Shown: piece by piece, positions 34,651 to 61,440 of the stretch
How positions within the stretch are numbered: the first letter of the stretch is position 1
How the letters are laid out: each line of letters starts with the position of its first letter
Assembly (NCBI GenBank): GCA_964434115.1
Contig: CAYSSX010000003.1
Span: 12,554 to 76,553, forward strand
DNA from: an uncultured bacterium
GTDB taxonomy: Bacteria; Omnitrophota; Omnitrophia; Omnitrophales; Aquincolibacteriaceae
Direction of reading: 5' to 3'
DNA length: 64,000 bases
Translations under genes and position numbers: made by a program
Notes under the pieces: model-generated
Seen by the model: only the letters and a program-made list of their open reading frames with translations
What the model was told of the DNA's origin: nothing
Database searches by the model: none

Positions 34651-34690
34651 TTCGAGCGGAAATTAATTCAAGAAAGAGGAAAGCACCGCA

Positions 34691-35299: not shown

Positions 35300-35376
35300 A
35301 CGTTTTTCGGATCCGGAGAAGCGGCCTCGTTTCTCCGGGAGTCCTTCCTCAGCAGTATCACAACCCAAGTCACGTC

Positions 35377-36111: not shown

Positions 36112-36156
36112 TTTGGATGCGAACCCTAAAAGGTCTTTCACCTGGAGGGAAAAAGT

Positions 36157-40400: not shown

Positions 40401-43400
40401 TTTAATGACTTAGCCAAGGTGTCAGAGCGTTATGGTGCGGACCTTAGCGTGGTGGCTTATGGCGCGGGGCTTGATAAACGAATCCGCAAACTTTTCACCA
40501 ACCCTTCTTTAGGTTTCGGCGGACGTCTCGCCCAGTTTTTGGAGTGGGTCAGGGAAGAGAGGCTGGAAGAAGTTCTGGCAGCTCTTGAAGCCCGTCCGGA
40601 TTTCTTTACGGAGCGTGAAAAACAGGATACCAAGCAGAAGAAACTGGAAATTATTGAAAGACGCCTTTCGGACAGTGTGTCGATGCTCCGTGAAATTGCT
40701 GAGAACCCGGACAGCGACATCACGGTGAAAGATATTCTGGATAAATTGCCGCCTATCCTGCATTTCCTTTTCGAGCTGGAAACGGTTCTCGATATCAACA
40801 AACGGAATCTGCAGGATTTTTCTGACAAGATTTCAGCGTATGTCGGTGACCTCAAGGGAAAGAAAGCGGCGCTTATTGGCGTGGGGTACCGGGAAGGGGA
40901 CACCCGGGTTACAAAATCTCCGGCCAAGCGGATTATCCGGCAGCTTGTGGCCGCGGGAGTGACCGAGTTTTACGTCTCGGATCCGCTCGCGCGGCAATCG
41001 CTTAAAGAATGGATCGAGGCCATCAGAAAAAACCCGCATGATTCGATGGGGAAAATTCTCAAAGACCGCCGTGTTCGCTTTTATGGCGTGGATGATGGAA
41101 CCCCCGATCTTGATCTTTACACAGCCTCTGCGAATTCCGACTTCGTGGTGATTCCCACAGATGCCAACTCCGATTTGAAGAATTTGGACCTCCCAAGACT
41201 TAAACAGAGTCTGGGGGATAAATTCCTTTTTGACGGAATTAACTTTTTTGGTCTCCGGGCGAACGGAGAAACAATTTATTCTTTAGAGGCCCTTCGGGGC
41301 GCGGGTATCCGCTATGTCAGCGTGGGCCGTCCGCCCTTGAATTTTTCCAGCGATTACGCACTTGTAGACAGCCGCGTTATTGGTGACGATTATGAACGCG
41401 GCGATGCTCAGCTCGCAGCAAAAGCCGTTGAAGAGTATCAGGCCTATCTCTTATCTCTGGAAACAGACGATGAGCGGAGAAAGAAACTGGAAGAGATTTT
41501 CAGAACACCGCAATTAGACCAGCGTGAAGCGAACGCTATTCCTGTCACTCAAAAGAAGGTTGCCGTGATTGGCGGCGGTTACGTGGGATTGACTACGGGG
41601 GCCAACCTGGCCGATCTCGGAAATGATGTGACCGTTCTCGATATTCCGCAGAGGAAGCGCGCGATGGACGCGTTGACCAGTGAAGCCACGGAAGTTCCTA
41701 TTCATGAGCCCGGTCTGCGCGACCTCATTATTAAAGGTAAGGAAGCCGGCAGGATACGGTTTCAAACCCTTCCCGCGGAGTATGAAAAAGGTGTGCGTGA
41801 AGCGAGCATTGTTTACCTTGCCGTGGGAACCCCTCAGCAGGACAACGGCGCTCAGGACCCCGCTTATATCAATGGTGCTATGCGTGATATCGCGGCCATT
41901 ATCAAACGCCAAGCCTCGGAAACGAGCAGAGAGGCAGCCTTTAAAACCATTGTGATCAAATCGACCGTGACTCCCCGGGTATTCGAAGACGCGGTAAAAA
42001 TTTTGGCGCAGGAGTTCGGCCTCAAGCCAGGGATTGATTACGGCTTTGTCAGTAATCCGGAGTTTTTGAGAGAAGGGCAAGCGATCAAGGACATTACCAC
42101 GGACCTTGACCGGACCGTTCTGGGGTTTTACTCGGGAATGCCGCAGGAAGCCCGCAGGCGAGTCGAAAAAGATCTTTTGGAACTCTGGTATCCGCTCATG
42201 CTGCGCACCCCTCACTCTGTTCTGCTGACCGATACGGCAACCTCTACTTTAATCAAATACGCGGCCAATGCGTTTCTCGCGGTGTCCATCACCACGGCGA
42301 ATGTGATGGCCCAGGATGCCGCGCTTGAAATTGAAGGTTCCAACTTCAAGGAAATCGCTCCGAGACTGCGCAGAGACCAGCGGGTTGGAGCGAATGCCTT
42401 CCTGAGCGAGGGATGCGGGTACGGCGGATCCTGTTTTCCTAAGGATGTCCGTGCGGTGAACTATCTTTCCGATGAACAAGCCGGCCGTTCGCTTTTGATG
42501 ATTGTTCTTGCCGATCAATTGAACCAATATTTCAAAACCGCTGAGGTTAAGCGGCTGATTGAACAGCTTCGCGGGACCAAGGCGATTGGGACGAAGGCGA
42601 TTCTTCAGGGCAAAGTCATCGCTCTTCTTGGAATGGCTTTCAAAGCTGAAACCGACGATATGAGAGAAGCGCCAAGCGCGCACGTTCTTTATGAGCTTTT
42701 GAAATTGGATGCCCAGCAAGTCAGGATCGATGACCCGATTTTCAGAACACCGGATGCCCCCCGGAAAGAAGTGATTATCAATAATTATCTGGGAGAGCTT
42801 TACAAGCATTTCAAACACGATGTGGATTTTGAGAGAGCCTTTGACGTCTATCTTAGATCCGGGGCTTTGGAAGATCAGACGGTTCAGCGTCAACTGTTCG
42901 CCAGGCTCCGCTTCAACCCGGATGTCCAAAAGCAATTGAGAGAAAGAATCAGTGTTGATTACGATGTGGATCTTGATGAAGCCGCTTTCCGGAAAAACTA
43001 TGGCATCTATTTTGATCCAAGTAATCCCAAAGATCCATGGGATGATCAAGCCGCCCATCTTGATGTCCGCCCGTTGATTTATGGATTTCAAGGTTTGTTG
43101 AAGACCAACCGCATCGACAGCTCCTCCCTTAAGGAGTTTTACTTCCGTGAGGTTTTCTTTAACCTCAAATACCAGGTCACGAACAGGGTGGTTTTTGTGA
43201 ATCAGGCCGAGGAAGCTCTTTCTTTTGAAGCTTCTGCCGGCAGCGGAAAACGTCCCGCGGATGCCGCACTTTTGATTACGGATTGGAGCGAGTACCGGAA
43301 TTTGGACTATTCAAGTTTTTCAGGACAGCTTTTGATTGATACCCGCAATACCCTTTATGCACGAGCCCCGCAGCTGACATCAAGCCTGGGAATCAACTTA

Positions 43401-44372
43401 ATCGGTCCCGGCCGCCGCACGCCGGCGCTGGGATCCATCCGTTCTGAACTGCGCTTGGCGGAAACAGCCTCGGTTTTTGAAACCCTCGCTGCCTCGGATG
43501 CTGCTAATCCGGTGAGCACGGTCCAGTTCCGGGAAAGGGTTTCGGAATTGCCTCGCCCCGGATCTTCGAGCGTGGCGGAGTTTCTTGAAATTCACCCGGA
43601 CTTCAAACCCAGGGATCAGGTGGTGGATGCTGTAGCCGCATCGTTTTTGCCGGAAGATGTACTGCATACCGATGACCCGAGTTCTATCGAGTATGTTCAT
43701 CTGCGTCTCTCGGAACCGTCCAAGGTTTCCGAGGAAGAACCGCTTGTTCTAAAAGAAGCCCGTGCCGCTTTGGGAAAATACGGCTGGCTTTTGGATCAGG
43801 CAAAAACCCCGGGACAGATTATTCTTCCGCTGGAGCAGGATCAGTCCGGTGATGAGGATCAGTTGAATGACAAGCTGTTCCGGGTTGCGGTCGTTTTGGC
43901 TGCCGCGGACCCGGGAAATCATTTTGCTTTTCTTGTCGATGGAACTCCTCAGCAGGCCCGGGCACAGGCATCCCGTATTGCAGGCCGGCAAAGCGAACTT
44001 AAAATTCCGGCAGCCCGAATTCTCGAACAGTTCAAATTTGTGCCTACGGATGGAAGTTCAGCGGGGTACATCCGGGCGGTTAAACAGCTTTATTCGAAGA
44101 ATAAAGAGGTGGATTCGGCGGTCGTCGGGAAGCGGCTGGATTGGCTGAGCGATCTCGAGTATATCCCGCGTATGCATAGAATTTTCAACGAACGTCTTGA
44201 TGACAAGACCGCTATTCTTGTCACGGCGGCCCTTTTGCGGCAATTGAGCGATCAATACGATGTGGTCAGGATGGACGATCTTCTCAAAAAATTTGATATT
44301 AATCTTGATGAACTGGTTGAGAACGTGGCGCGTATGATCCAGGTCATCAACCATCTTGCGACCCAAGCTTAA
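37461..44372 (+). CDS. Giant multidomain protein 2 (2303 aa). It has an N-terminal hydrophobic anchor, the shared two-His N-module, an extra UDP-binding (UDPGDH-C-like) domain and a complete UDP-glucose/GDP-mannose dehydrogenase
   Basis: Uninterrupted 6912-nt ORF. N-module motifs are QDAH at 37758..37769 and GGFH at 39060..39071. The dehydrogenase motifs are VAVIGGGYVGLTTG, NPEFLREGQA, GCGYGGSCFPKD (Cys codon 42432..42434), IALLGMAFKAETDDMREAP and ITDWSEYRN. Confidence 0.8.
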   Translation: MSQTDCMAILGARKCAAVTLFFFGFQTVASSAPAETLLPAASQIQIQEKIPNFTPQEIAGYLREIPSELGSLRESFIPGNADAENGTAEKLPMPVVFHVQDAHANLEAQARIKEILEWVRKMSKDHGVQGPVVVALEGSAGELHPEYLDLFPEYPEANEAFVRDLKDKGEITGSGLFLWEQYKEKKSHPENDSENTGNIVFWGAENPELYRRNLNQFRSLLMKRKEIDAFLQPYQAQLAIAQSRILNPQLRDFLKDSDNPETLALAVLKHAKPTLGIDLSERIEQIRFPNLARFAYLRELEPLLDSELSRMDWQSLKKGFEKDGIPEEMIARFEQLFSPSDETGVSFRKTVEEILQRSNFSASRFRDYPHLAQWVSYKLLSQEIESSDFVAELERLKQAVMTKLAVRKQEKDFLSVHSDFSLFQKVLHLEVTRSEYAEALKTGGRLQAGEFSKRLGELLERDREFEELGKNARNNEAALQEVFKKALGFYEGAGSRDLEILENALSFYDKQARAQVSLQEGALSKPGVLVLVTGGFHSEGVTRYLKDQGIAHLVVVPRISKIETENLYFKVMRRENSDMSAYFDKNPLNKQESLFLRGLVEKAAPELTQKYGVSSAEIPQLLEQVIHRHPVLSEKLETAVFPGEGKPFVRISVTDPAKKAVRTSAQSVGEVDLLTSAGKGQASYAYLAEQEFDPSLVTTVTVTPSLSGHSAVEKAPLKGGLLMQNLGSLEVTAGPIDAANLKILRSAADQMRNFSGIMSATQAGPNSLILPQAGVRSELRTIPQGSEKKAVAEISLDKMTANQEEINRIVENHDLIYVKADIQDTLTYAEYMKKFEPYITAIGSALKTLRQKEKLGGRDNSHKVFIMKTWSEVGSTQKFFDDIKWFREPTPEEGDNDYFFDVVFQPDFSYRSESGKDVEDQILFGVRNLGVPSGDLETARQERTLNLLRKNFDNPDFMGAASAEQTKNDLFLYLAAKLAHFNDLAKVSERYGADLSVVAYGAGLDKRIRKLFTNPSLGFGGRLAQFLEWVREERLEEVLAALEARPDFFTEREKQDTKQKKLEIIERRLSDSVSMLREIAENPDSDITVKDILDKLPPILHFLFELETVLDINKRNLQDFSDKISAYVGDLKGKKAALIGVGYREGDTRVTKSPAKRIIRQLVAAGVTEFYVSDPLARQSLKEWIEAIRKNPHDSMGKILKDRRVRFYGVDDGTPDLDLYTASANSDFVVIPTDANSDLKNLDLPRLKQSLGDKFLFDGINFFGLRANGETIYSLEALRGAGIRYVSVGRPPLNFSSDYALVDSRVIGDDYERGDAQLAAKAVEEYQAYLLSLETDDERRKKLEEIFRTPQLDQREANAIPVTQKKVAVIGGGYVGLTTGANLADLGNDVTVLDIPQRKRAMDALTSEATEVPIHEPGLRDLIIKGKEAGRIRFQTLPAEYEKGVREASIVYLAVGTPQQDNGAQDPAYINGAMRDIAAIIKRQASETSREAAFKTIVIKSTVTPRVFEDAVKILAQEFGLKPGIDYGFVSNPEFLREGQAIKDITTDLDRTVLGFYSGMPQEARRRVEKDLLELWYPLMLRTPHSVLLTDTATSTLIKYAANAFLAVSITTANVMAQDAALEIEGSNFKEIAPRLRRDQRVGANAFLSEGCGYGGSCFPKDVRAVNYLSDEQAGRSLLMIVLADQLNQYFKTAEVKRLIEQLRGTKAIGTKAILQGKVIALLGMAFKAETDDMREAPSAHVLYELLKLDAQQVRIDDPIFRTPDAPRKEVIINNYLGELYKHFKHDVDFERAFDVYLRSGALEDQTVQRQLFARLRFNPDVQKQLRERISVDYDVDLDEAAFRKNYGIYFDPSNPKDPWDDQAAHLDVRPLIYGFQGLLKTNRIDSSSLKEFYFREVFFNLKYQVTNRVVFVNQAEEALSFEASAGSGKRPADAALLITDWSEYRNLDYSSFSGQLLIDTRNTLYARAPQLTSSLGINLIGPGRRTPALGSIRSELRLAETASVFETLAASDAANPVSTVQFRERVSELPRPGSSSVAEFLEIHPDFKPRDQVVDAVAASFLPEDVLHTDDPSSIEYVHLRLSEPSKVSEEEPLVLKEARAALGKYGWLLDQAKTPGQIILPLEQDQSGDEDQLNDKLFRVAVVLAAADPGNHFAFLVDGTPQQARAQASRIAGRQSELKIPAARILEQFKFVPTDGSSAGYIRAVKQLYSKNKEVDSAVVGKRLDWLSDLEYIPRMHRIFNERLDDKTAILVTAALLRQLSDQYDVVRMDDLLKKFDINLDELVENVARMIQVINHLATQA
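37758..39071 (+). other. Shared N-terminal module of giant 2 (between the QDAH and GGFH motifs)
   Basis: VVFHVQDAHANLEAQ ... VVVALEGSAGELHPEYLDLFPEYPEA ... VLVLVTGGFHSEGVTRYL. GGFH falls at residue 534-537, the same position as in giant 3. Confidence 0.6.
40855..41180 (+). other. Additional UDP-glucose dehydrogenase C-terminal-like (UDP-binding) domain in giant 2
   Basis: KGKKAALIGVGYREGDTRVTKSPAKRIIRQLVAAGVTEFYVSDP...DFVVIPTD follows the pattern VAVLGLAFKxxTDDxRESPA..II..L...GA.V..YDP...AD.VVI.T. Confidence 0.45.
41551..43370 (+). other. UDP-glucose/GDP-mannose 6-dehydrogenase domain of giant 2 (the UDP-binding subdomain has a long insertion)
   Basis: The NAD-binding GGGYVG, the central NPEFLREG, the catalytic GGSCFPKD, the C-terminal FKAETDDMREAP and the final ADAALLITDWSEYRNLDYSSFSGQLLIDTRN are all present. 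Confidence 0.75.
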
Positions 44373-44527: not shown

Positions 44528-47500
44528 ATGGATTTACCTAAAATAAAAACCGGGTGGGCCCGGCTTAGTGCTTGGCCTTTGCTCATCGTCTTTCTCTGTT
44601 CCGAGACGATTGGTCCGGGGTCTGTCCATTTAGCGTATGCCGGCGAACCCGCGGGTTTTTCTAGTGTCATCTCCGGTAAAGACGGGGATGTTTTAAAGGC
44701 TCTCTTGAAGCTGATGCCGGAGAATAAGGCTGTTGTTCAGAGCCTCGAAAATGGAAAGGGAAGTCCGGAAGACCCCCGGGTGATTCATCTTCAAGATGCC
44801 CATGCTAACCCCGAAGCTCAGCGCCATATTCAAGAAGTCCTGAGTTTTCTGGCGGAGCACCAAGCACGCAAAGGGCTTGATCTTTTTGTCGCCGTGGAAG
44901 GCGCCCGAGGAGATTTACACCCGGAGTATTTTGACTTCTTTCCGGATGTCCCGGAGGCCGGAGATGCGGTCGTTCGAGACCTTCTTGAAAAAGGTGAAAT
45001 TTCCGGCGTGGAACTTTTTGCCTGGTCCCAGTATCAGACCCTCAAAAAGAAACCCGCATCCGGCCAGCTGAACCCTGTGAAGATCCGAGGAGTCGAAACA
45101 ACACCGCTTTACCGCGAAAACCTGGAAACTTACCGGGCTTTGCTCAGCCGCCGGCCTTGGATTTCTGAAACCCTTGAAAAAGGTAAGGCGGCGCTGCAGA
45201 GCGAGATGACGCAGACGCTGAATCCGGAACTGACCCGTTTTTACAAAGAGCGTGAGAAACGCCGGCATGGGCAATTTGGAATCCGGAGAAAAGACGCGGG
45301 CAACGGTGATCTGAGCGTTTATGCGGATACGCTTAAGGTGCAGAGCGCGCAAACGCTTCAGGTTAATCTTGAGGATCCGGTTGAGCAGCTGCGCTTTCCG
45401 AATTTTGCGAGGCTTCTTGAACTGAAGAAAACGAAACTCAGTTTTCATGACGAAGCGACTGTTCAAGGCTGGAAGCAAGTCCTAGAGCTCCTTTCCAAAT
45501 CGCCTCAAAATGCAAGCAATCTGACGGCTCTTGCGGAGCTGGCAAAGAACCATGCTATTTTGACGGCCGAGGACCTGGCGGCGTTTCCTTCTGCCGAAGC
45601 CGTGGAAGAAATTTCTCCGCGCCGGATTTTTGAAGACCTCGCACAGCAGGGCATTCTAGCGGCCGCAGGCGAAGAGGGGGCCCTGCCCTTTAAGTCGGCA
45701 CTGAAAGCAATCGTTCTCCAGTCAGAACTTGATGTCCAGGGCTTGTTCGAAGAAATGGACCGTCTTGAAAATGGCATTCTAAATAGTCTGGCTGTGAGTC
45801 CGGCTGAAAAGGAATGGCTTGGCCGGATACAGAGTTATGAGAATCTCCAAAAGCTGATGTATCTGGAAATGACAAGGTCTGAATTTGAAAAGATCGATTC
45901 CCGGCGTCTTGACCTTGAAACCCTGCTGGGAAGCGTTCTTGCTCCGGACGCCCTGAAGGAATTAAAGAAACTCTCGGAGCAGGCATTTTTCTTTTACCAG
46001 CAAGCCCGTGAACGCGATGAAGCGCTTGTGTCCAATGCCCTTGAATTTGTGCATAAAGAAATGGAGGGGCCCGGACGGGAAGTCCTTTCCATGAAGAGGG
46101 AAGACGACTCCAGGCCCATTCTTGTTATTGTCAGCGGCGGATTTCATGCTCAAGGAATACAGGATGTCCTGCGGAAGAAAAAATTGTCCTTTGCGTCCGT
46201 GCTGCCGACTATCGGTGAACTTGACCGGGGAGAACGTTACGCCCGTGTTATGGGAGGCGAAAACGCCGACCTTCAAATTTACTTTAAGAATGCCAACCCT
46301 TTTCTGACGAAGCAGGAAGCTCTCTTTTTTAAAGAGGCCGTTGAGGTGGCCCTCCCTGTTTGGATCAAAGAAAAAGGAACTTCTCCCGATTCTCTCAACG
46401 AGGTGAAAGGTTCTTTTAAGAGCCATCCGGTGCTGTCGCAGATCTTAGAGGTCGAACTCGCGGAGTCTGCTGTTTCGCCGGCCCTTGTTTTTTCCGCGCG
46501 GCCTAATCTTGGGGCTTTGCTGCCAAGAAATTCTTCCATCAGCGCTGTCTTGTCTTCTTCGGATATTGCTTTCAGCCGCGAAGTGGAGGGGAAACTTCCC
46601 AGGAAGGAAACGTCTTCCGAATTCCGGTGGAAACCTTCAGGGGTTTCATCCGCGCCCCGGCCGCAGGAAATCCCGGCTGGACCGCGTGCCGAACTGCGTT
46701 CAACGGGAACATCGTTAAGCCCGGAAGAACAAAGGTTTGCCGAGCAGAATATTCAGGCCATGTACAACGCGGTTCAGAAGTCGGAAGGTCCCGACATTGT
46801 GATCATTGTTTCTGCGCAAGAAAGCGAACGGCGTTTTTGGAAAACAAGGCTTGAAGGCCTGCGCGGGCAGGTCATCGGAAAAGATACAACGGTGTTTTCA
46901 GTTCTGGAAAGTTACGGAGCCGGTTCTCCTCCGGGAAATGGGCTGGGCAGTCTGCTGGCCTATCAAAGCGCCCGGGAAGAAAGCAAAGAACAAGCCGGTG
47001 TCAGCTGGAAAACATTGATGGAAAAAATCAAACGCGAAAAGGGCAGGGAAGCGACGATTGCGATTTATCACACGGCAGGTTTTGGAAGCCGTGTTTGGCC
47101 GATCACCGGTTCCGAATACGGTTCTAAAAGCCGCATCACGATGCCTCGCTATTTGGATAAAGCAGGAAGCAAGGTGCCGATGACGCTTCTTGAGTCCACC
47201 ATTTTTCAAAGTTCGATTTTTGCCAAGAACCGCCCAGGACGAATCCTGGTGTTTTGGGGAGACCAGGTGTTTGTGCCGACGGTGCCGCTCGAGGAGCTTC
47301 AAAGTCCGAGTGATTCTCCTGTCGAGATTTTGGCGTTAGTGGGACAGTTTCCCTACGAAGACATTATCAATAAATATGGGTTGATCGCACTTGAATCGCA
47401 GGGGCCGGACGGATGGACGGCTGCGCGGCTCATGCAAAAACCAAAAACGGTGCAGGAAGCCCAGGAATTTATAGCTGCGCACAGCCAGGTTTCGGGAATG

Positions 47501-50500
47501 GGAAAAAGCCTGGGATCTTTCACTGTGGATCGCCGCTTCTGGGACAGCATGATGCGTTCTTACCGCCAGGAATTGAATGAGGAAAATCCCCTTGAGCAGT
47601 CAAAGAACCGGGCGGATACGGACGGTGATTGGTGGATCCCTCTCACGAGCCTGGAGTTTGTTCTGAAGAATGCCTCGACGGATGTTTCGCAGTTTAAGAA
47701 TGCAAAGGCTCTGAAAGAATATCTTGTGAAAGAGGGGCTTGACCAGCCCGAGTTTACGGACCGGGTCATCCGCCTTTATCTGAGCTCACGGAAAAACTCT
47801 TCTCAGCCTTTTATGAAGGTCATCAATGCCGGAGCCAAATCTCTTTGGTGGGATTTTGGAAATGTCGGAGTCGAGGAAGGAACCACAGAAGGAATCTTCA
47901 GGCGAAACATCCTTGTTCTTCTTCAGGATACAGCGGAAGGCCGTTTGGCGCGGCAGTTCTGGGGAGTGCCAGAACTTTTCACGGGAACATTGCCCGGAAC
48001 GCAGGTTCAGGTTCAGAATTCCATCATCACAGCTTCTGAAATTTTGCCCGGATCGACCGGCGCTATTCAAAATTCCGTCATTTCAGGGGTCCGGGGAGCT
48101 TTCAACTTTGAAGTCTCCGACAGTTTCCTTTACGGGATTACGAATGAAAGCGCTTCCCCGCAATCACCACTTAGCGTCAAGTCCGAACATGGGATTGGCT
48201 ATCAGTTAAAGCTTTCCGCGCCGCTTGCTATTTCCTCGGGACACATTCTGGCAGGCGTTCCAGTTCTTGGAGTAGACGTTGTTTTGAGAACAACTGAAGC
48301 GTCAGATGCAAAACAACTGTGGCTCCGGGCTATGTATGAAAATCTATTAGCTTTTGGATCCGCGGCTTATCTTATCCGTCTGGCTGAAGCTAACCGCAGC
48401 GCCCAAATCGCAGGCGTCTCTGTTTCGAACCTTGAATATCGCGGCTTCTTTGAGCATCAGGGGATGCAGCATGCCGTGATCGAAGGGCGTGACGCTTCAG
48501 ATCAACCGGTTATCGCAGTCCTGCACGTATCTTCTGTTGATCAGATAACAGACGCAGAACTTCATGAGGCCATTCTTTCGCCGGGCATCGAAGGCGCAAT
48601 CTTTTCCGGGAAACTCTATGACAGTTCCAGAGAAATTCTTCTCCTTACTTACGCGGCACGATCCGAATTGCGCGGTCTTGAGATGGATTCTTTGGCGCCT
48701 GAAATCCAGACCTTATTAGCGGCTACCGCCGATGAAGCGGCCTTGAAACAGGAGTTTCTGAGGCTTGTGTATGAAAAGCTTTCGCCGGAAAAAAGCGCGC
48801 AGGCTGCCGCTGTTTTTAAGGCCGTCCGCGCAGACAAACTCCCCTATGAGTACCCGCAGTTTTTTGAGGGGGTGATAAGTGCCCGGACCCAGGCATCCGG
48901 CCAAACATCTTTCAGAGCCTATTTGGAAACGAATCTTTCTGCTAACCCTGCCGAAATCAGCGCTTTTGCGGCGGATATTCTCCGGGCCTTTTCAAAAACC
49001 GCAGATTTTGAAAGGGCTACGACGGCTTTTTTCCGGTTTGATCAGACTTCGACCATTAGGTTTGTGGACCAGCTCATTGAAGAGAAAACGCTTACAGGCG
49101 ACAAATCCGTTACGGTAAAAAGCTTGGGAACTTCCAGCGGAGAAGAGCCTTATACGCTGGCCATGATTGTTTATTATGGATTGAAAAAATATTACGAGGC
49201 TCACCAGCGGGAAATATCGTCAAAAGAAGGGATTGGGACCTTCCAGGCTTGGGCAGAGAGCTGGAATGTTTCAATTGAAGCCTATGATTATGACCTGGCG
49301 AATTTAGTCCTCGTTCAAAACGGTTTGTTTGATTTTCTTTACGATGACCCTATGGGCGGATTTGGTTACAACGATGAAGACAATTATCTCAATGAAGCGT
49401 GGCTGTATTCAAAGGACAGAAATACCGGGGCTCTTGGGCCTGCCGAAACATGGCGGTATTCTCCAGAAACGGAAGCTGGAGCCTCTTTCCCGTTTCGCTC
49501 AACGCTTAGCAAACGGTTGAAATCGGGAGAAAAGATCGGCTTTAAATTTTCTGCCGTCGATTTGCTGAAAAAATGGATGAAGCCTGTTTATGTTGATTTG
49601 CGGGGACCCGCTGACGCTGAAGTTCTGAGTCTTACCCAAGCGAATATTATTGTTGTGAGTTTTCTGCGGGGCGCGGCATATCTCGATTCGAAAGATGATT
49701 ATCTTGTTCAGGCTATAGAAAAAAGCCGGGATGCAAAACACAGCAGTCTTGCCCTTGCCGGATCTGCGATCGTGAAGCCCGCTCAGCGTTCGGAGCTCAG
49801 AATAAGCACAGAGACGGAGAGCCTTGACAGTACACTTTTGAACGCCGTTGGAAAATTGGATATCGAAACATCCGAAGGAGTTAAAACGCTAAAACTGCTT
49901 GTCAGCCGGATCTTGAAATCGGCATTCACCCGGACACTGTCGGCTGAGCAGCGGACAAAAATAGCAGATCTGTCAGGTTTAACCGAGGACAGCGAACAGT
50001 TGGAAGTCCTTCAGGACATTCTTGACGATCCCGAAGTTCTGCAGGTTTTCAGAGATGATCTTGCTGCTGATGATTCGGGCGATGTTCGTTTTGACGCGGC
50101 CGCCCAAACCTTGAGCTATACACCCGGATATGCATTGGCCGTACAGGCTGATATTGACGAAGCGCTGCGCACCTTTGAAACGGGCAGTTATGTCGATGTT
50201 CAGGGGGCTATGATAAAACTTCTCCGGCAGGTGAGCCTGGGATTTGCGGAGGAGGTCCGGAAGAGTCTGAAACAGAGTTTGGTTCGTGAGTTTGAACAGT
50301 GGCGGATTTTGATCAAAGTCTTGGAAACCGAGATTGGTGCCAGATCTGAACTTCGTTCATCAGAAAAAACCTATTCGGAAGCTCTCCAATTTACATCCCG
50401 TCCTGTGGTGACGGTTTCCGGTGATTCCGCAAAAGTTGAAATTACTTTCCGGACAGATGCCGCCACGCTTGAAAAATCAGAAATGTTTTTTCATTGGGGA

Positions 50501-53500
50501 GACTATACGCAAGGCCCGCTGGATTGGACGGATCACGAAATTCTAAATTGGGACATCGAAGATCTCGGCGGCGGTATTTATAAAGCATCAAAGGTGATTC
50601 AGCCCGGCCGTATCGGTGAGTTCGGAGTCACAGCCTACGCGCAGAACCGCGTGACGGGAGAGCGGGTTTGGCAGGGAAAAAACCGAGGTGATGATGCTGT
50701 GATGGGGATTGACCTTCTTCCGAAAACCGTCCTTGAAGACCTCCGGCGTAATCTTAAAAAACAGGAAGCCATTCAGGAGATCCGGCAGAGCCTTATTGAC
50801 ACGAATCCGTATGACAGCTTCATCACTGTGATCCACCGTCTCGTGGTTGATGAAGAAATGCGGGGCATGGGAAAAATTGTTTACGACGCAGTCAAAGATG
50901 TCCCGCGCTTCCGAACGGTTCTTTCTCAGATTCACAGCCGTCTGAAAGAGGACAGTAAAGTCTGGAATCCGTTTTTCAAGGAAAGGGCGCTTCCTGCTTT
51001 GCATGCATTAGAAACGCTCGGCATTGGAGAGATTGTTTTTGTAGCTCCTGAAGGTCCTCATGCGATTGCCGGCGGTTTGGCCAAGGTCATTGAGGGCCTT
51101 GCCAAGGCTTTGTCAGAAAGCGGTGTCTCAGTCACGGTCATCACGCCTCTCTATGAAGACAATCAAGGTAAGAAGCATGAATCCGCAGAAGCTTTGATCG
51201 AAAAAGGTTTCATGACAGAAAGCGGGGAAAGAGTTCCCATTAAGGCCGACCCCGTCGCTGAGATCGGAATGACCTTTGGCCCCATTTATGATTCGGGAAC
51301 GCACATGACCGGTTTGAGCGATGACAAAATCCGGACCTTTCAAAGAACAGTTCAAAGCCGGGTCTATGAAGCCAAAGCAGAAGGCGTCCGGTACCTTTTC
51401 CTCAGACACCCGCGCCTTGCTGACAAGCTTTACGCAAAAGTCCCGTCTTCCGAAGAGTTAAGGCGCGCTGTCTTTCTGTCCCGGGCCGCGCTTGAAGTGG
51501 TTCAGAACAGGGCGCTTGGCGTTGACCCGCAGCTCATCATTTCCAATGACTGGGTCACCGGGTTAATCCCGACGTTCCTTCAACGTGATCCGCGTTACTC
51601 CCAAGACCCCCTTCTCAAGGATGTCGGCACGGTTCATATGATTCACAATTACGGGCGCGACTATCAGGGGCGTGTTTTTACGAATCAATATGGGTTGGAT
51701 CTCTGGCCGCTTCTTGGACTCAAGCACGACTTCTACAAAGATGTTGCAGACCCCAATGATGACCGGTTCCTCAACATCACTTCAAGCGCCATGGAGCACG
51801 TCAACCGTTCCATTCTGACGGTGAGCCGTCCGTATGCCGAGCAGATGCTCACCCCTGAAGCAGGGGAAGGTCTCGACACTATTCTCAATCCGCTGAAAGA
51901 AATTCTGTTTGGAATCAGTAATGGAATTGATGAAGCGGCGGCCCGGAAAACATTCTGGAAAAAGGGTGAAGAGGCCCGTCAGGCCCTCGAACTTCCAGGG
52001 CTTATGGAAGACTATTCCGATGAAGGCTTTTTGAAAAATCTTTGGGACTATAAGAATTCGGCGCTTGTTAAAACTCAGAAAGACTTCGGTTTTACCGAAG
52101 ACCCAGATGCGATCTTTTTGTCGATGATCGGACGCGTTGCCGAGCAGAAAGGCATTCAGCTTTTGACGGATACGGAAAATGGAGTGACGGTTCTGGAAAG
52201 CCTTCTCCAGATGAATCCGAAAGTTCAGATTTTTCTGGGCGGGCCTGTTGCAGAAGGGGATGGGACGGCGGAGCGGCTGCGGGATTTGACCCGTGAACTT
52301 GAGCAGAAATATCCGGGCAGAATCCGGGGGGAATACACCTTCATTCCGGGAGCCACAACCCTTCAGGTCATGCTGGCAAGCCGATTCTTTTTAATGCCTT
52401 CCCGCTATGAGCCAGGGGGCATTACGCAGCTGGAGTCGTTGGCGTCGGGAACGCCTGTGGTGGCAAGAAATGTGGGGGGGATTGCCGCAACCTTGATTAA
52501 TTATTTTGATCATCCCGATAATGGCAACGGCTTTTTGTTTACAGATTTTACCGGCGCAGCCCTTCGAGGAACGCTCGCAGCGGCTTTTGATGCAGCGGCT
52601 GGCGACCCCGGCCTTCTTAAGACCTTGTCCAACCGTGCTGCCAATGCTCAAAACGACTGGCATGACCGGATTCCTCAATATCTTTCTCTGCTTCAACTCG
52701 GGGCCGGCGTGATCCGTCCTTCGGAAACGGCATTTCAGACAGATTATGCTTATCTCTCTGACCGGACAGGCATTCTTAACGACCTTCGCCCCCGCAACCG
52801 CGCAGAATTGAGATCGGATAAAGGGAACCCCTATATACTGGAAGAGAATGTCACCCGTGGATTTGCATTTCTTGATGAAATGCATGGGGGCCGCGTGAGC
52901 ACGGCGATTTCAAACGCGGTAAAACGCGCAGCGCCAGGAACTAAACCCAGAGTGCTCCTCTTAGAGGTCGGACGCGGAGTTGTGCCTGCCGAATTGATAA
53001 ACCAGAGAGACGAAAAGGGTGAAAAAAAATGGCCCGATGTTGAGTTCTTTTCGTCCGGTGCGGAAGACCTGCTTTTTTCTGCAGAAGAACTGGAGAAATT
53101 CATGGGCAATATCAGCCCTGAGGAGGCTGCGGTCATCGCGGATACTATCAGAGGCCGTTTCGCCGCTGCGGATCTTGACTATGATCTTGGCGCTTTTGAG
53201 AATTCCACATTTGATGTCATTGTCATGACGCAGGCTGTGATGGAGTACATGAGAAATATCCCCGGAGTGATTGACCGTCTTTCCAGAAAATTAAATATCG
53301 GAGGAGAGTTCATAACCGATCTGGACATCATGAGTATTAAGGATCCCGAGACGCAGGAAAGAGTGGATACGAAAGCTTTCTTTGAGTCGTTGAATCCAGG
53401 TTATGAGATCTATGGAATTACCCTGAAAGGCACACCGCTGCCGTACGACTTTTTTGCAGGACTTCGTTTCACGCGCCTGTCAGAAGACATTCCCAAAATT

Positions 53501-56500
53501 CCGCTGGATGCGACACAGAGTTCAAAAACCTATACAGTGCAGCGCTCTGAGCTGCGCGCGGAACAAGCCAGCGCTCCCCAAAACGTGCGTTTGAACGGCG
53601 TTTCACCTGAAATGCTGAAAGTAGAAGCCGGCGAGCTGGTTTTTTGGCGTCCGTCCCAGCGTCAAATGAACACGTCTCTGAAGAGGCCTTATGATGATGA
53701 AAAGGTCGTGGTCCAGAAAATACACAATGAGCTTGAAACTTTGGATACCCTTTGGATGCAGATTATGGGCGAGCTTCAAGAGCGGAGCTATTCCCCTGAT
53801 GCGCTGGATATTGTGGAGCTAATGGTTCGACGTGCGATGGAGGTGATACGGACCCAGGAGATCAAAGCGGAAGTGGCGCTCCGAACGGTGAAAGAGGAAA
53901 TGCTGGCGGCCGCTAAAGAAGAATCCGGTGATGATCTGGATTTAACGACGGCAGCAGGAATCGTAGATAAGAGGCTTCTCCCCGCTTTGGAAAACCGTGA
54001 AGAGCTTGTGTATGTTGAAAGCGGTCTCGATGAAGAGGCGAGGAAAAAACTCTTCATTGATCGAGAGAGAGACCAAGTACTCGCGAAAGTTTTTGAAATC
54101 ATTCTTCGACTGCCGTATGGGCTGCACATTTCCCCCGAGGATTACGGAGAAGATGAAAAAGACAGGGTCAAAAAGCTGATCCATACGGAACGCCAAATAG
54201 CGGACGGACGGCGCGCCATGCTCACCAATGACCTACTGCCGGAGATCCTGAAAGTTGTTGAACAGGGGAAGAGGGCCCAGTTTGCAATTAATCAGGTCAT
54301 CAAAAAGAAGGTCGAGCCGGGCTTGGAGCGCTTAAAAAAGATGGTGGACGACAGCCGTAAAACAGGCGGAGATACCCTTGTCGGTTCAAGACTCATCAAA
54401 GTTTTTGAAGAACAGAGATCTCTCCTGGAAGGGATTCGCGACGAATTTGACACGTATGATTTTATTTATGATTCGTCAGACCTGCCTGCGGAAAAGGAAA
54501 AGAAGCGGCGCGGCGAGCTTGAACGGTTTGAAGCCGTTTACAGGGACACCCTGGTTTTTTTCCCAAATCCCTCTGAGGATCTAAAAGCGTTTCTGGAAGA
54601 ACTCAGAACCCTGGTTACGTATGAAATCCGGGAGCGCGGCCGCACGCTGGACTATGGTATCGCGAAATTTTTCAGTCAAAAGGGATCGGAGCGGTATAAA
54701 GATATTCCCACTGAGCAGCTTGATTTCCTGATGCGGTTTTACAACGTCAGCCAGTATGGCATCGTGAAGCGGAAAGGCGACAAGAACCTTGTGGTTTTCG
54801 CGGAGAAGATCCGGCATGAAGCCGATTTTGCCGAGCTGATGATGAGGAACAAGGGGCGCGGAAGAGTGGTCTCAATTGCGACGCTCAAACGGTTCGCTCC
54901 GGATGACGCGCCCGGCCGGGTACCGCACTGGTTTATTTTTTCAAAAGACCAGGGCATTGTTCCGATTGAAGCACTCGACTTTGAAGATCGTAAAATGGAT
55001 TTCAAGGACCTCAAAGACGGAGACTTCGTTCTGGTGGACGGCAAAAAAGGAATCGCTGTCGTGAACCCGAACTCGGAAACTCAGCGCGATATGATCGAAC
55101 GCGGCAAGGTTTACAAATACCTGGATGAGTATTTCCTTCCGCGCGTGTCTCTGCCGGCTCTTGTCAATGGACGACCGTTCTACTTTTGGGCGGATGAATC
55201 ACGTTTGGATTACCTGAAGCGCGACGGCGATCAGCCGAGATTCCAGAAATTCGGAGCCCGGGGGATCGGACTGCTCCGGCTTGAGCAGTTGATGGGAGAA
55301 ATGGACCGTGCGGGCATTGAGTTCGACGAAATGCGCCTCAGCCTTGCAATCGAAGAAATGCTTCTGCCGTTTTCCGATCCTGAAGCGCCGTTGACGATCC
55401 GACTTTATGATGTTCAAGGAGATAAACGCCCGAAGTTTTTTGTGGAAGGAAAAAGCGAGGAACAAATCGAGGGTATTCTCAAGACGCATTCCAACATTCG
55501 CTTTTACCTGGACGAACGGGAGGAATTCCGCAATCAGCGTGAATTCGGAAAAATGCAGATCAAGGCGATTTACCGGGCTTATCTCCGCGCGCAGAAGAAC
55601 AACTTACAGATTCTGCTCCCAAATCTGCTGAAAGTGGAAGAGGTAGAAGCGTTGAAGAAGCTTTTTGATGAAGCGCGCCAGGAGCTTATCCGTGAACTTG
55701 AAGAAGAAGCTCTGATTCAGGTAGAAGCGGCCGTGGTGCGCCGGCACGGGTGGATCACAGATATTAATGCTTTGGAAACCGAAGCCCTTGAGAAGGGGCT
55801 CGACTGGTTCAGGAATCAGCTTCTAAGTAAGCCCGAAATGAAGCCGCACGAGGAGCAGTTCGGGCAAGAGTCCGACGCTGATTTTGCCAAGGTGGCTGGC
55901 CCTGATTTTGGAAAGAAAGTCACTCTGAGTTTGAGCAAAATCCGGTTTGGATACATGTTCGAAGAGGTTTCGGCTGTTGAGCAGCGCAGCGACATTATGA
56001 AGGCTGTCCTTGCGCAGCATCAGGTTGCGGAGGCCAAGCCTTTTTTTGGAATCGGTACGAATGACCTTCAGAAGTCAGTACTTGAGTCCCGCGAAGAAAC
56101 CAATGATGAGATGAACAAGCTGCACCCCGGACTTGTGAAGGCTATAGCGGATCTTGAGGGGACTGCGCGTGAGCTAGGACTTCATCTGACCGTTGAAGGC
56201 CAGTGGGGCGGATCCGCCCGCATGCTGTTTGCCGCCATGGCGCTTGAAATCTATCACGGGCGTAAGATGCAGCTCGTTGCGCCCACCAATAAAATCCCTG
56301 AACTTCTTGAAATGATCCGGATGACTGAAGCCGCGGATCTGGAACACGTTTTTGACTTGGGATCCAGCTATAAGCCGGCATCCATGAAAACATTGATTGA
56401 CCGGATGGAAGCCGGGGATCTTCCTGAGCTGGATGAGATGAACCTTGTCGCGACCATGCTGCAAGACCGTATTGAGGCGAAGATTGTGGCCAGTTCTGAT

Positions 56501-57499
56501 TTTCAGACATTCCGGAATTTGAAGGAAAGGCAGGAACTCATGGCGCGTAATGAACTTCGCCTGGCAGAGGCCCCGGATGTTTCCTCGACGCAGGGATGGA
56601 AACAAACATTGGCTGAAACCATAAGCCCGGTGTTTTCTCTCCGTTTGCCCGGCCTTTTTGGTTCTGACGTTCAGGCTTCTGTGATTGATGCCTCCCGTAA
56701 TTTGGGAGGGGTTTATTCCGTGGCGGAAGTTGAAAAACGTCTTCCGGATCAAGTGGCCGTGGAAGGCGATCTTTCCGGAACAGGACAGCTTTCCCGTGAG
56801 CAGGCGGCTCAGAAGTGGGTTGCCCGGCAAGTGATGCAGGAGAATGGGCTCTTTGAGCGTTCGGGGGTTGAGGATGAAGCCCTTCAGAAAATGCTGTCAG
56901 AAATTCCGGAACTCCCCATGCGCGCAGCCGAGGATCAGGGAGCCGCGGGATTGTCCGCGGAAGTGCACATTCAAATGCCTGCAGTCCCTCAAGATCTGAC
57001 AGGCTTTTTGCCCGTGCTGGCCGTAGTGGCTTCCGTGAACGGGGCCTTGCATTTGAATATGAGTTCCCTGGATGAAGCGGGCGCGAAAAAATTCGAAAGA
57101 CAGATTTTGGATCTGGCAGCCGAAAAACGGATTCAGTTAAAACGCGGACAATTTCAGGTGAGGGCCGGGGCAGGTGCCGCCCTTTTCGCTTCTGTTCCCC
57201 AATCCCGGTTGAATGCCTCCGACCATCACGCCTTGCTTGGGGAAGAAGATGTTTTTAACAGCTTTCCGAAACGGCGGGGGTTGAATCTTTTCAGCCTCGA
57301 TCCGGCTGCGGTTTCTGATCCGGGTCTTTTTGCATCCACCGTGATCACGGTTCTTCAGGCCATGGCGCTTGGAAAACAGCCGGAGGATTATTTCCACGTC
57401 CTGAATCCCAAGAGCCTTTTCCCGCAGAATTTCCAGGCCGTGGTGCAGGCGGTTTCGACCTATCTCGCGGCCCAGGCACGCATCGCTGCCGCGGCTTAA
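44528..57499 (+). CDS. Giant multidomain protein 3 (4323 aa). It has an N-terminal hydrophobic anchor, the shared two-His N-module, an FPGT/fucokinase-like nucleotidyltransferase, a CheR-like methyltransferase, a CBM-like module, a GT5 glycogen/starch-synthase-like glycosyltransferase, a class-I methyltransferase and a PEP-utilising enzyme (phosphohistidine plus PEP-binding barrel)
   Basis: Uninterrupted 12972-nt ORF starting 155 bp after giant 2. N-module motifs are QDAH at 44792..44803 and GGFH at 46136..46147. The domain motifs are listed in the sub-features below. Confidence 0.8.
   Translation: [4323 protein letters not shown]
44792..46147 (+). other. Shared N-terminal module of giant 3
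   Basis: [15 protein letters not shown] ... [25 protein letters not shown] ... [18 protein letters not shown]. Confidence 0.6.
46793..48300 (+). other. Fucose-1-phosphate guanylyltransferase (FPGT)/fucokinase-family-like nucleotidyltransferase region with a hexapeptide-like tail
   Basis: [22 protein letters not shown]...[24 protein letters not shown] and [30 protein letters not shown] parallel the FPGT pattern W-D-VVITA..E.Q...Y..QL...DP.G..GSGGSTL.AL and IIHSGGYSQRLP. It is followed by a [29 protein letters not shown] beta-helix-like stretch. Confidence 0.45.
48900..49620 (+). other. CheR-like SAM-dependent methyltransferase domain
   Basis: [24 protein letters not shown] matches the CheR motif VWSAACSTGEEPYSIAM, and [16 protein letters not shown] matches the downstream CheR motif. 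Confidence 0.55.
50400..50700 (+). other. Putative carbohydrate-binding (CBM20/25/53-like) module preceding the GT5 domain
   Basis: [40 protein letters not shown] has the beta-sandwich pattern of a short V-x-F strand followed by a W/H-G-x-x-x-W aromatic cluster. The position mirrors the CBMs of starch synthase III. Confidence 0.3.
51040..52700 (+). other. GT5-type (glycogen/starch synthase-like) GT-B glycosyltransferase domain
   Basis: The N-terminal [41 protein letters not shown] matches the GlgA motif KTGGLADV. The C-terminal [37 protein letters not shown] matches the GlgA motif [33 protein letters not shown]. Confidence 0.7.
52940..53330 (+). other. Class-I SAM-dependent methyltransferase-like domain
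   Basis: [18 protein letters not shown] is motif I-like, [13 protein letters not shown] is motif II-like and [14 protein letters not shown] is motif III-like. Confidence 0.4.
54880..56260 (+). other. PEP-utilising enzyme module (mobile phosphohistidine domain plus TIM-barrel PEP-binding domain)
   Basis: [21 protein letters not shown] parallels [54 protein letters not shown] and [14 protein letters not shown] (the classic IGTNDLTQ motif) are all present. Confidence 0.65.
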
Positions 57500-57756: not shown

Positions 57757-58728
57757 ATGACTCTGCGAAAAGCAAATCCTGAAAATATCCGGGAAGCCGC
57801 TGCGATTCTTCAACAGGGCGGACTTGTTGCTTTCCCGACTGAAACGGTCTATGGCCTGGGGGCGAATGCGCTGAACCCCGCCGCCGTTGCTCAAATCTTC
57901 GAAGTCAAAAACCGTCCTTTCTTTGATCCGTTGATTGTTCATGTCGCGGACCGCTCCGAAGTTGAAAAATTTGCGTTTGTTTCTGAACAGGCAAAACAGC
58001 TTCTGGAGGTTTTTTGCCCGGGTCCACTGACCCTTGTGTTGAAGCGTAAAAATAATATTCCCGACCTCGTGACGTCAGGGCTGCCGACTGTGGCGATCCG
58101 GGTACCTGCTCATCCCGTGGCGCTCGCCCTGATCCGGGAGAGCGGATTTCCTATTGCCGCCCCGAGTGCCAATCCCTTTGGTTTTCTAAGTCCCACCACG
58201 GCCCAGCATGTCGAAGCTTCTTTGGGAGATAAGGTGGCTATGGTTCTTGACGGGGGCGTTTGTGAAACGGGGGTCGAATCCACGATTGTGGATGTGTCCG
58301 GAGAGAAGCCCGCGCTTTTACGGCCCGGAGGAATTCCCGTGGAAGAAATTGAACGCGTCATCGGCTTTCTCGAAGTTCCAGAAGCCGGCACAAAACCCAC
58401 GGCTCCCGGACAGCTTGAGCAGCATTATGCCCCGAGGACTCCCTTGAGGATTCTTTCCCTGGATCAAATAGTGAAGCACCCCAAACTTTCCAGCGCGGGA
58501 ATTCTTCTTCTGAAGAACGCCCGGGAAAAAATTTCCGCAAAGGCTTGCGAAGTCCTTTCTCCGAAGGGCTCTCTTAATGAAGCCGCGCAGAATTTATTTG
58601 CGGCGCTCCACCGCCTGGATGAAAGCGGCGCTGACGTCATTTTTGCGGAGCCTGTTCCCGAAACCGGCCTCGGGCGTGCGATCATGGACCGCCTCCGCAG
58701 AGCCGCGGCCTCCCGCGGCGGCCATTGA
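57757..58728 (+). CDS. tsaC: L-threonylcarbamoyladenylate synthase (Sua5/YwlC type, YrdC domain plus Sua5 C-domain)
   Basis: GGLVAFPTETVYGLGANA, FEVKNRPFFDPLIVHV and IAAPSANPFG form the YrdC fold. The total length of 323 aa includes the Sua5 C-terminal extension. Confidence 0.8.
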   Translation: MTLRKANPENIREAAAILQQGGLVAFPTETVYGLGANALNPAAVAQIFEVKNRPFFDPLIVHVADRSEVEKFAFVSEQAKQLLEVFCPGPLTLVLKRKNNIPDLVTSGLPTVAIRVPAHPVALALIRESGFPIAAPSANPFGFLSPTTAQHVEASLGDKVAMVLDGGVCETGVESTIVDVSGEKPALLRPGGIPVEEIERVIGFLEVPEAGTKPTAPGQLEQHYAPRTPLRILSLDQIVKHPKLSSAGILLLKNAREKISAKACEVLSPKGSLNEAAQNLFAALHRLDESGADVIFAEPVPETGLGRAIMDRLRRAAASRGGH

Positions 58729-58776
58729 TGCCGGAAGGCTTCCCTTTCCGCGCTTTTTCATGTAATTTGTCTCTTC

Positions 58777-60009: not shown

Positions 60010-60042
60010 ACCCACGGGGATCCCGGAAAAAACGGCGGGCTT

Positions 60043-61431: not shown

Positions 61432-61440
61432 AGGAATTTT

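Follow-up and report, generated by a model that had tools for sequence, protein, structure and literature searches.

A delimiter pentapeptide at the domain boundaries of a modular Omnitrophota giant protein, a possible polyprotein

Omnitrophota proteins of more than 30,000 amino acids (aa), the ‘Archaeovorins’, were described by West-Roberts et al. (bioRxiv 10.1101/2023.11.21.568195). In that work they are recorded as carrying domains of glycosyltransferase families 5 and 1 (GT5 and GT1), methyltransferases, NUDIX proteins, glycolytic enzymes and the pyruvate-phosphate-dikinase type. Cleavage of these proteins was suspected, the cleavage points were stated to be unknown, and splitting into functional units was not possible for the authors. 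The study by Nielsen & Lui covers 916 proteins of at least 10,000 aa, includes a ‘multi-enzyme metabolic cluster’ class and records the GT5 family PF08323 in 153 (bioRxiv 10.64898/2026.06.07.730766). Giant 3 (G3), the protein considered here, is encoded at 44528..57499 on the + strand of contig CAYSSX010000003.1 from an uncultured Omnitrophota bacterium, as a single intact frame of 4,323 aa and a stop codon. Coordinates refer to the window, the whole 64,000-nucleotide (64-kb) stretch that was analysed, and all features of G3 lie on its + strand. G3 is a small member of the multi-enzyme Omnitrophota giants already described. An initial annotation of the stretch had held that no fusion of a GT5 enzyme with a phosphoenolpyruvate (PEP)-utilising module and a CheR-type methyltransferase was known; the domain set of the Archaeovorins makes this statement outdated. 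G3 shares with the published giants its phylum, the presence of many unrelated enzymes on one chain, a similar range of domains (GT5, GT1, methyltransferase and pyruvate-phosphate-dikinase type), and a signal peptide or membrane association. The published proteins (≥10,000 or >30,000 aa) are rich in membrane helices and contain HEAT repeats as well as C39/S8 peptidase or SecA-like domains, whereas G3 has no membrane helix past its signal-like N-terminus, carries a TIKI-fold N-module and a C-module, and contains no HEAT, C39, S8 or SecA-like family detectable in a whole-protein Pfam search. Text searches of the two papers turned up neither TIKI nor TraB, and neither a delimiter motif nor the Enzyme I (EI)/HPr pair.

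Viral and eukaryotic polyproteins are cut at short motifs, such as the Q-G/S sites of the 3C/3CL proteases and the basic sites of furin/Kex2. Judged from sequence alone, G3 resembles them in having one open reading frame (ORF), independently folding enzymes and a lineage-specific short motif in flexible linkers. To our knowledge, chromosomal gene families of such size in bacteria have few precedents for behaving as polyproteins. MARTX proteins are similar to G3 in that conserved termini surround variable enzymatic cassettes, and the MARTX cassettes are freed by site-specific autoprocessing in the linkers. The cargo of G3 is metabolic rather than cytotoxic, and neither RTX repeats nor a C80 cysteine protease domain was detected in it with Pfam. 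The layout of G3 thus appears polyprotein-like, with conserved termini, exchangeable cassettes and a short conserved motif in each linker. The overall best explanation, to which about even credence is given, is that G3 is a modular Omnitrophota giant and probably represents a polyprotein, not an assembly line built for glycans.

The most striking feature of G3, which the initial annotation did not report, is a delimiter pentapeptide at its domain boundaries. The motif, R-[S/A/N]-E-L-R, occurs seven times (0.032 copies expected from shuffled G3), and the copies coincide with every boundary between recognisable domains. They are RAELR at 46685..46699 (aa 720-724), RSELR at 48659..48673 (aa 1378-1382), 49787..49801 (aa 1754-1758) and 50342..50356 (aa 1939-1943), RAELR at 52799..52813 (aa 2758-2762), RSELR at 53543..53557 (aa 3006-3010) and RNELR at 56546..56560 (aa 4007-4011). 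An example of a motif-bearing linker is PAGPRAELRSTGT. The protein is split in this way into eight pieces: the N-module (aa 1-719), six cassettes and the C-module (aa 4007-4323). The linkers are flexible in structure models: the predicted local distance difference test (pLDDT) score drops under 50 for aa 684-721 and, in the model of cassette 1, for residues 1-8. The codons of the motif differ synonymously among the sites of G3 (CGT, CGA, CGC, AGA, etc.), so the constraint acts on the peptide rather than on the DNA or RNA; a cause at either nucleic acid level was rejected on this ground. Two further giants in the window, G2 with two sites and G1 with three, have Leu at the fourth motif position throughout. 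When the window was scanned in six frames, each of the 12 in-gene motif sites belonged to G1, G2 or G3. One further match lies in an antisense ORF overlapping G3 and is taken as spurious.

The G3 frame contains no in-frame stop across its 12,972 nt, and its composition is even along the ORF. The encoded protein is identical to a public protein, P0007, found on an NCBI contig of 349,684 bp. A colinear ortholog is present in locus L017 (CAYRBY010000003.1), a contig of an independent metagenome-assembled genome (MAG), with 81.7% identity across its available 2,500 aa; the delimiter sites in this part are all kept (4/4) and the linkers have diverged. The second relative, P0042 (4,960 aa), is colinear with G3 cassette by cassette. 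Because of the identical public protein and the colinear ortholog in L017, a frameshift or misassembly is an unlikely source of the ORF. The uninterrupted giant frame given in the initial annotation is therefore confirmed, as is the N-module that G3 was said to share: it has 32% identity to that of G2 (E 2e-67) and weaker similarity to that of G1. Taken together, what the initial annotation observed is largely borne out, and its interpretation is supported in part.

The N-module defines a large family. An exhaustive profile search, clustered at 50% identity, yielded 8,806 clusters with an E-value limit of 1e-3 and 4,973 with a limit of 1e-30, and the best 150 relatives were examined. Most of these measure 1,000-7,840 aa, and nearly all carry the module at the N-terminus; those that do not are evidently 5′-truncated fragments. 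When one genome was scanned for each GTDB species, 195 loci were obtained. The taxonomy was taken from the best 80, all of which are Omnitrophota MAGs save one labelled Planctomycetales; many genomes contain two to five paralogs. The odd locus, L056 (CAYXSY010000002.1, ‘uncultured Planctomycetales bacterium’), has either been mislabelled or mis-binned or represents the sole occurrence seen outside the Omnitrophota. G3 thus reads as one member of a very large, modular ‘beads-on-a-string’ family of giants found here only in Omnitrophota. As far as the literature searched shows, neither the family of N- and C-modules nor its delimiter code has been described, and searches on the pentapeptides and on ‘Omnitroph* + polyprotein’ returned nothing relevant.

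The delimiter is shared by the relatives in the form R-[SA]-E-Φ-R, in which Φ is V, L, M, I or A. The 150 best relatives contain 668 R-[SA]-E-x-R sites, compared with 27 expected, and the x residue is V in 199, L in 183, M in 88, A in 59 and I in 44. Their commonest repeated tetrapeptides are RSEL/SELR, RSEV/SEVR, RSEM/SEMR, RSEA/SEAR and RAEV/AEVR. The motif is flanked by P/S/A/G at positions -3 to -1 and by S/A/T at +1, followed by an acidic stretch. Among the members of at least 2,000 aa (n=96), 63 have three or more sites. Median positions are aa 687 for the first site, just past the N-module, and 294 aa before the C-terminus for the last, and the median spacing of 269 aa is that of a domain. 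In the fetched loci, motif density is 0.97 per 1,000 aa for ORFs with the N-module and approximately 0.1, near chance, for other ORFs. The high-density exceptions are mostly large same-strand ORFs, either upstream neighbours cut by the edge of the locus or N-module ORFs missed by the classifier.

A second motif, [AGS]-x-S-L-G, occurs in six long members without RSEΦR, in 5-16 copies each and at similar spacing. A swap of motif between lineages is as expected of a recognition site co-evolving with its reader. Carriers of inter-cassette [AGS]-x-S-L-G are P0133, P0104, P0121, P0108, P0113, P0140 and P0146, the last of which has compound linkers of the form RSEVR-(E/A)AR(M/L)GL(S/N)DPQSLNPIGS-RAEIR.

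The pieces between the delimiters behave as units. A phmmer search with the pieces of G3 gave end-to-end cassette alignments with P0042, P0046, P0053 and P0025, in different contexts. P0042 contains cassettes 1-5 in the order of G3 and the C-module, and its alignments start and stop at motif borders. In P0046, cassette 4 is found at aa 3311-4103 and cassette 5 is distant from it, at aa 5370-5600. Only cassette 4 and the C-module were matched in P0053, and only cassette 6 in P0025. The GT5 cassettes of P0053, P0051 and P0063 occur without a recognisable pyrophosphorylase, methyltransferase or PEP module, and that of P0063 is accompanied by a histidine-kinase ATPase domain. When the cargo regions of 61 motif-rich members were compared all against all with BLAST, 38.7% of alignment ends fell no more than 10 aa from a motif or from the C-terminus, compared with 5.7% for random positions; the median distance was 25 aa versus 128 aa. 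A Pfam census of 12 members recorded response-regulator receiver domains (4), GT5 (3), PEP-utilizers_C (3) and PTS-HPr (2), together with hexokinase, GlpX-type fructose-bisphosphatase, transaldolase, a histidine-kinase ATPase domain, a TrmB-type methyltransferase and DUF218. Since homology blocks begin and end at motifs and the cassettes are variously combined, the alignments mark the cassettes as units of evolutionary exchange that recombine independently. The particular combination found in G3 is common to its close relatives only (L017 and P0042).

The N-terminus of G3 (44528..44644, aa 1-39) has a basic, K/R-rich n-region and a hydrophobic LSAWPLLIVFLCS, followed by AYA-G, and residues 9-24 form a helix in the model. 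It resembles a Sec signal peptide, and export of the protein may be expected. No further membrane helix is likely in G3 according to a 19-aa window scan, in which the sole later window over threshold, at aa 1235 with a score of 1.69, falls within cassette 1. The N-module (44711..46507, aa ~62-660) is predicted to have a TIKI/ChaN/EreA-type alpha/beta core with a helical insertion of approximately 340 aa. It has no Pfam or NCBIfam match, and a profile search against PDB sequences gave only a chance hit. The model has a parallel beta-sheet core, a fold shared with ChaN, Bcr135/136, HopBA1, Ere and TraB. The fold matches overlap the set assigned to the TIKI superfamily (PMC6254334), and some are annotated as ‘succinoglycan biosynthesis’.

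Members of the TIKI superfamily carry a catalytic set of 2His/2Glu on core strands, and the superfamily member RRSP, a MARTX effector, is a metal-independent, sequence-specific endopeptidase (PMC6254334). Within MARTX this domain serves as an effector among the cargo, with host Ras as the protein it cuts, and is not the processing protease (PMC6254334). The alignment of N-modules has three invariant clusters, Q89-D90-A91-H92, E124-G125 and G537-G538-F539-H540, located directly after strands 84-90, 119-123 and 531-537 of the model. The resulting set of D90-x-H92, E124 and H540 may correspond to the 2His/2Glu of TIKI, with the first acid Asp or Asn, not Glu; the strand placement is taken from the model. 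Across 151 family members, Q[DN]AH is kept in 132 and GGFH in 144. The N-module is a candidate cis-acting protease because the TIKI-family proteins Tiki and RRSP are sequence-specific endopeptidases with the same set of two His and two acidic residues.

Cassette 1 (46685..48658, aa 720-1377) is predicted to be an FKP/FPGT-like sugar-1-phosphate nucleotidyltransferase, an assignment made through structure prediction only. The predicted fold is closest to GDP-fucose pyrophosphorylase, and in a Foldseek search all 50 of the 50 best matches to the model were sugar-1-phosphate nucleotidyltransferases. The GxGxR signature is present as AGFGSR at nt 47075, within an H-T-A-G-x-G-x-R loop that is invariant in the homolog alignment. 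The FPGT/fucokinase-like enzyme of the initial annotation is consequently upheld by the fold and the loop; the family search that should have recovered it fails, with no PF07959 match in cassette 1 (E limit 1) or in 19 homologs (E limit 0.1). Pfam, NCBIfam and PDB sequence searches recognised no sequence-level family. In comparison with the GDP-L-fucose pyrophosphorylase of FKP/FPGT, the cassette has 13% identity and lacks both the PF07959 match and the fucokinase half. Its homologs (P0152-P0169) are standalone proteins of approximately 530 aa that carry no Pfam annotation, and marine eukaryote transcriptomes (MMETSP) account for at least two. Fused forms are one homolog with ArfGAP and PH domains and another with phosphomannose isomerase/cupin, and the latter fusion hints at a hexose rather than a fucose substrate.

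Cassette 2 (48659..49786, aa 1378-1753) is a putative CheR-type, S-adenosylmethionine (SAM)-binding methyltransferase-like domain. The GEEPY motif on which this assignment was originally based is located at nt 49139. The CheR family PF01739, for which the cut-off is 27 bits, scored 27.4 bits on the isolated cassette and 22.6 bits on the whole protein, and the match spans only profile positions 2-55 of 195; the assignment is thus borderline. The P0042 ortholog of the cassette reached 32.9 bits. The CheR N-terminal helical domain PF03705 was not matched in G3 or its isolated pieces, and no match to cassette 2 was found among PDB sequences. Cassette 3 (49787..50341, aa 1754-1938) has 185 aa, is conserved only in P0042 and belongs to no family recognised by Pfam or NCBIfam.

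Cassette 4 (50342..52798, aa 1939-2757) contains a conserved N-terminal region of approximately 230 aa, followed by a GT5 enzyme of the glycogen/starch-synthase-like GT-B type. In the whole-protein Pfam search, PF08323 was found at aa 2169-2454 (E 8e-36) and PF00534 at aa 2519-2674 (E 1e-11); on the isolated cassette the values are 2e-37 and 3e-12. Both domains pass their gathering scores (124-130 bits versus 22.7 for PF08323, 45-47 bits versus 26.4 for PF00534). The GT5 assignment of the initial annotation is strongly supported, and both of its diagnostic motifs are present where it placed them, AGGLAKV at nt 51068 and PSRYEPGG, intact, at nt 52397. Among the PDB sequences matched are granule-bound starch synthase GBSS1 (3e-20) and bacterial glycogen synthases. 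GlgA and the plant starch synthases share with the cassette the two-domain GT-B organisation, PF08323 with PF00534, and PSRYEPGG. It differs from GlgA in scoring 216.6 bits with NCBIfam TIGR02095 (glgA), under the cut-off of 328.45, in reading IAGGL for KTGGL, in its 230-aa N-terminal extension and in its location inside a giant protein. A possible carbohydrate-binding module suggested near 50.5 kb finds no support, the N-terminal region having no match and no such module in searches that included a four-sequence profile.

Cassette 5 (52799..53542, aa 2758-3005) probably has a class I SAM-methyltransferase fold, though the signal is weak. A second methyltransferase had been proposed at this place. 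A profile of three orthologs agrees with it, aligning to the SAM-methyltransferase MitM from motif I through post-III (E 0.018); the Pfam evidence is confined to sub-threshold hits, with Methyltransf_11/12 and MetW among them and weak class I methyltransferase hits near aa 2875-2929.

Cassette 6 (53543..56545, aa 3006-4006) consists of a region of approximately 450 aa, a motif like that of the phospho-His swivel (His3467) and a TIM barrel that binds PEP. PF02896 (PEP-utilizers_C) was found at E 1e-18 in the whole protein and 3e-20 in the isolated cassette (67.7-72.9 bits versus 22.8). IGTNDL at nt 56051 and GRVPHWFIF at nt 54914 also bear out the PEP-utilising module originally annotated; the phosphohistidine family PF00391 was not recovered. 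The best NCBIfam model for the cassette is TIGR01417 (Enzyme I of the phosphotransferase system, PTS) at 61.8 bits, and its best PDB relatives are EI C-domains (3e-8), with GLxRxE, TIRxxDxxGDK and IGTNDL conserved. The segment GRVPH(3467)WFIF, followed by FVLVDGKKGIAVVNP, is placed where the TIGR01417 alignment expects the phospho-His domain of EI. In the order seen in PtsI, a phospho-His swivel-like motif precedes a PEP-binding barrel with three conserved motifs. Unlike PtsI, the cassette is without PF05524 and PF00391 hits, has in their place the N-terminal region of approximately 450 aa, for which no family match was found, and has Glu aligned to the catalytic Cys. The EI N-terminal HPr-binding domain PF05524 had no match in G3 or in isolated cassette 6, and no HPr domain was found in G3 or in the six frames of the window.

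At the position of cassette 6, P0042 has a different unit of 1,678 aa, in which PEP-utilizers_C is followed by three tandem HPr-like domains (aa 4046-4135, 4250-4328 and 4443-4530), the first of which keeps a GLH-x-x-P-A-like active-site motif. The G3 cassette is approximately 680 aa shorter than this counterpart and has no HPr domains. From the P0042 cassette it may be supposed that the PEP module belongs to an EI-HPr phosphorelay of which the HPr part was lost in G3. The evidence on the PEP module points toward protein phosphotransfer rather than glycan phosphorylation or pyruvylation; the likeness to EI and the pairing with HPr in P0042 render the PEP-dependent glycan modification of the initial annotation less likely. 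The final piece, the C-module (56546..57496, aa 4007-4323, approximately 315 aa), is conserved and always C-terminal in the relatives. It matched the extreme C-termini of nine family members with phmmer and has no Pfam or NCBIfam match.

A mechanism can be proposed in which G3 would be exported and R-S-E-Φ-R would serve as recognition sites for endoproteolysis, freeing the cassettes as separate enzymes. The TIKI-fold N-module would be the candidate protease in cis. The freed cargo may act in sugar-nucleotide and glucan metabolism and in PEP-dependent phosphotransfer, either in the envelope of the producer or in a host cell. A strictly conserved, lineage-switchable pentapeptide in flexible linkers suggests that the motif is read by another macromolecule, for which the two main options would be endoproteolytic processing and docking. 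Processing is favoured on account of the fold and residue set of the head domain, the MARTX-like layout and the prior suspicion of cleavage in the Omnitrophota giants. Endoproteolytic processing at the R-S-E-Φ-R sites is put forward tentatively, at slightly below even credence. That the N-module is itself the protease is considerably more doubtful. The widest form of the proposal is improbable as a whole: it would have widespread self-processing bacterial polyproteins, in which an N-terminal TIKI endopeptidase or a genome-encoded partner cuts RSEΦR/[AGS]xSLG and the enzymes, after Sec export, are delivered into or onto the host of episymbiotic nanobacteria.

If the motif is instead an uncut docking or tethering linear motif, it might be a beta-strand faced with R/E/R that binds a chaperone, an export factor, a scaffold or the N- or C-module, with the chain organised on the cell surface. 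The head would then be a TIKI-fold esterase or ligand-binding anchor, as in EreA, GumN and ChaN, and not a protease. The alternating R-x-E-x-R suits one face of an extended strand, the TIKI-fold members include haem-binding ChaN and esterases as well as proteins annotated as ‘succinoglycan biosynthesis’, for the larger Omnitrophota giants a membrane-anchored position at the surface is predicted, and no dedicated protease gene is found nearby. Against docking stands the conserved acid-x-His/Glu/His set, which speaks for a head that is catalytic and does more than bind; the swap to [AGS]xSLG in other lineages fits docking and processing equally. Docking is on balance rather improbable, at a level clearly below that of processing. 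The glycan assembly line implied by the initial annotation is unlikely. Here G3 would remain uncleaved as a scaffolded megaenzyme performing sugar activation, alpha-glucan polymerisation, two methylations and phosphorylation/pyruvylation, and RSELR would be a mere linker. Every recognisable cassette is compatible with sugar chemistry, the cassette order is kept in L017 and P0042, and a sugar-metabolism module centred on PF08323 occurs in larger Omnitrophota giants (bioRxiv 10.64898/2026.06.07.730766). Glycan genes are located around the giants, namely MBOAT and DegT downstream of G3, RmlC near G1 and a UDP-glucose dehydrogenase inside G2. The sugar theme is upheld to this extent, by the enzyme types and by the neighbouring genes. 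The shared order says little, however, as L017 and P0042 are close relatives, and distant members have the GT5 cassette without pyrophosphorylase, methyltransferases or PEP module; with cassettes occurring in other combinations, the theme does not extend to one co-evolved pathway. The pyrophosphorylase fold is nearest the GDP-fucose enzyme, not the ADP/UDP-glucose enzymes, and does not obviously feed a GT5 glucan synthase. The PEP module is EI-like and paired with HPr domains in P0042, and R-x-E-x-R, invariant and enriched 25- to 200-fold, is more than a plain linker would call for. An origin of the long ORF as an artefact, whether a chimeric assembly, a fused gene run or a decaying pseudogene, is scarcely credible. 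The contig is metagenome-derived and several cassettes fall under curated family cut-offs; on the other side stand the stop-free frame and its even composition, the colinear L017 and P0042, and thousands of relatives built alike.

Several observations weigh against the preferred reading of G3 as a processed polyprotein. Both the cleavage itself and the protease role of the N-module are drawn from sequence and fold, and the TIKI-fold proteins also include non-proteases, such as the haem-binding ChaN and the Ere esterases. Asn replaces the first acid of the N-module set in approximately 10% of members, and the QDAH/QNAH variant does not correlate with motif type. Among the 96 long members, 27 carry neither R-[SA]-E-Φ-R nor [AGS]-x-S-L-G. 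The Φ residue is uniform in some genomes (the window, JAUYMS and VFQY) and mixed in others; as both kinds of genome occur, there is no clean pattern, and a genome-specific Φ was rejected as a pointer to a trans-acting reader. No protease gene was found beside the giants among the window neighbours, which are housekeeping genes. Exported cargo would lack nucleoside diphosphate sugars, SAM and PEP unless it reached the cytoplasm of another cell. Within the cargo, the Lys of KTGGL is lost in cassette 4, and the catalytic Cys of the EI barrel aligns to Glu in cassette 6, in a weak second alignment stretch. This Cys corresponds to Cys502 in E. coli EI.

Giant 2 (G2; 37461..44372, +; 2,303 aa) lies directly upstream of G3, has the same N-module and carries RSELR at aa 776 and 1994. 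Between these two sites, at aa 1365-1768, its cargo is a complete UDP-glucose/GDP-mannose dehydrogenase with all three Pfam domains. The C-terminus of G2 is similar to the C-termini of P0005 and P0003. Giant 1 (G1; 797..8833, +; 2,678 aa) has a divergent copy of the N-module and R[SA]ELR at aa 618, 722 and 2457. No recognisable cargo was found in a Pfam scan of G1, which, unlike G2 and G3, has two membrane-helix-like clusters at aa ~900-1035 and ~1885-1975. Large motif-bearing ORFs are also located directly before N-module genes, on the same strand, in the upstream flanks of L008, L018, L023, L053, L064 and L071; given these six loci, the giants of the family are probably often in tandem, like G2 and G3.

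The G2 and G3 genes are flanked by an rpsB-tsf-pyrH-frr block (33721-36729) and a block at 57757-63538, in which genes for Sua5/TsaC, a major facilitator superfamily (MFS) transporter, an MBOAT acyltransferase, a DUF1574-like protein and a DegT sugar aminotransferase are found. The surroundings are chromosomal and not obviously mobile. At 10843-12881 on the - strand, a Ddl-like ATP-grasp gene adjoins a gene for a Peptidase_Mx-like putative zinc peptidase, a pairing that recalls peptide-modification loci; no link of this pair to the giants was found. The Peptidase_Mx-like gene and an M48 peptidase, both elsewhere in the window, have no evident tie to the giants.

Giant multi-enzyme proteins are a signature of the Omnitrophota, and the motif offers a parsing rule for their structure prediction and annotation. 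Its presence in thousands of proteins makes the processing of giants directly testable, with a candidate protease head in which three residues can be mutated. If processing were not confirmed, a new linear motif would still be described, together with a family whose N- and C-modules are covered by no current domain library. If processing is true, the family would represent a large chromosomal bacterial polyprotein system with exchangeable enzyme cargo. If the self-processing reading is true, it would extend an effector-delivery principle similar to that of MARTX to metabolic cargo, and would supply the missing ‘cleavage points’ of the Omnitrophota giants.

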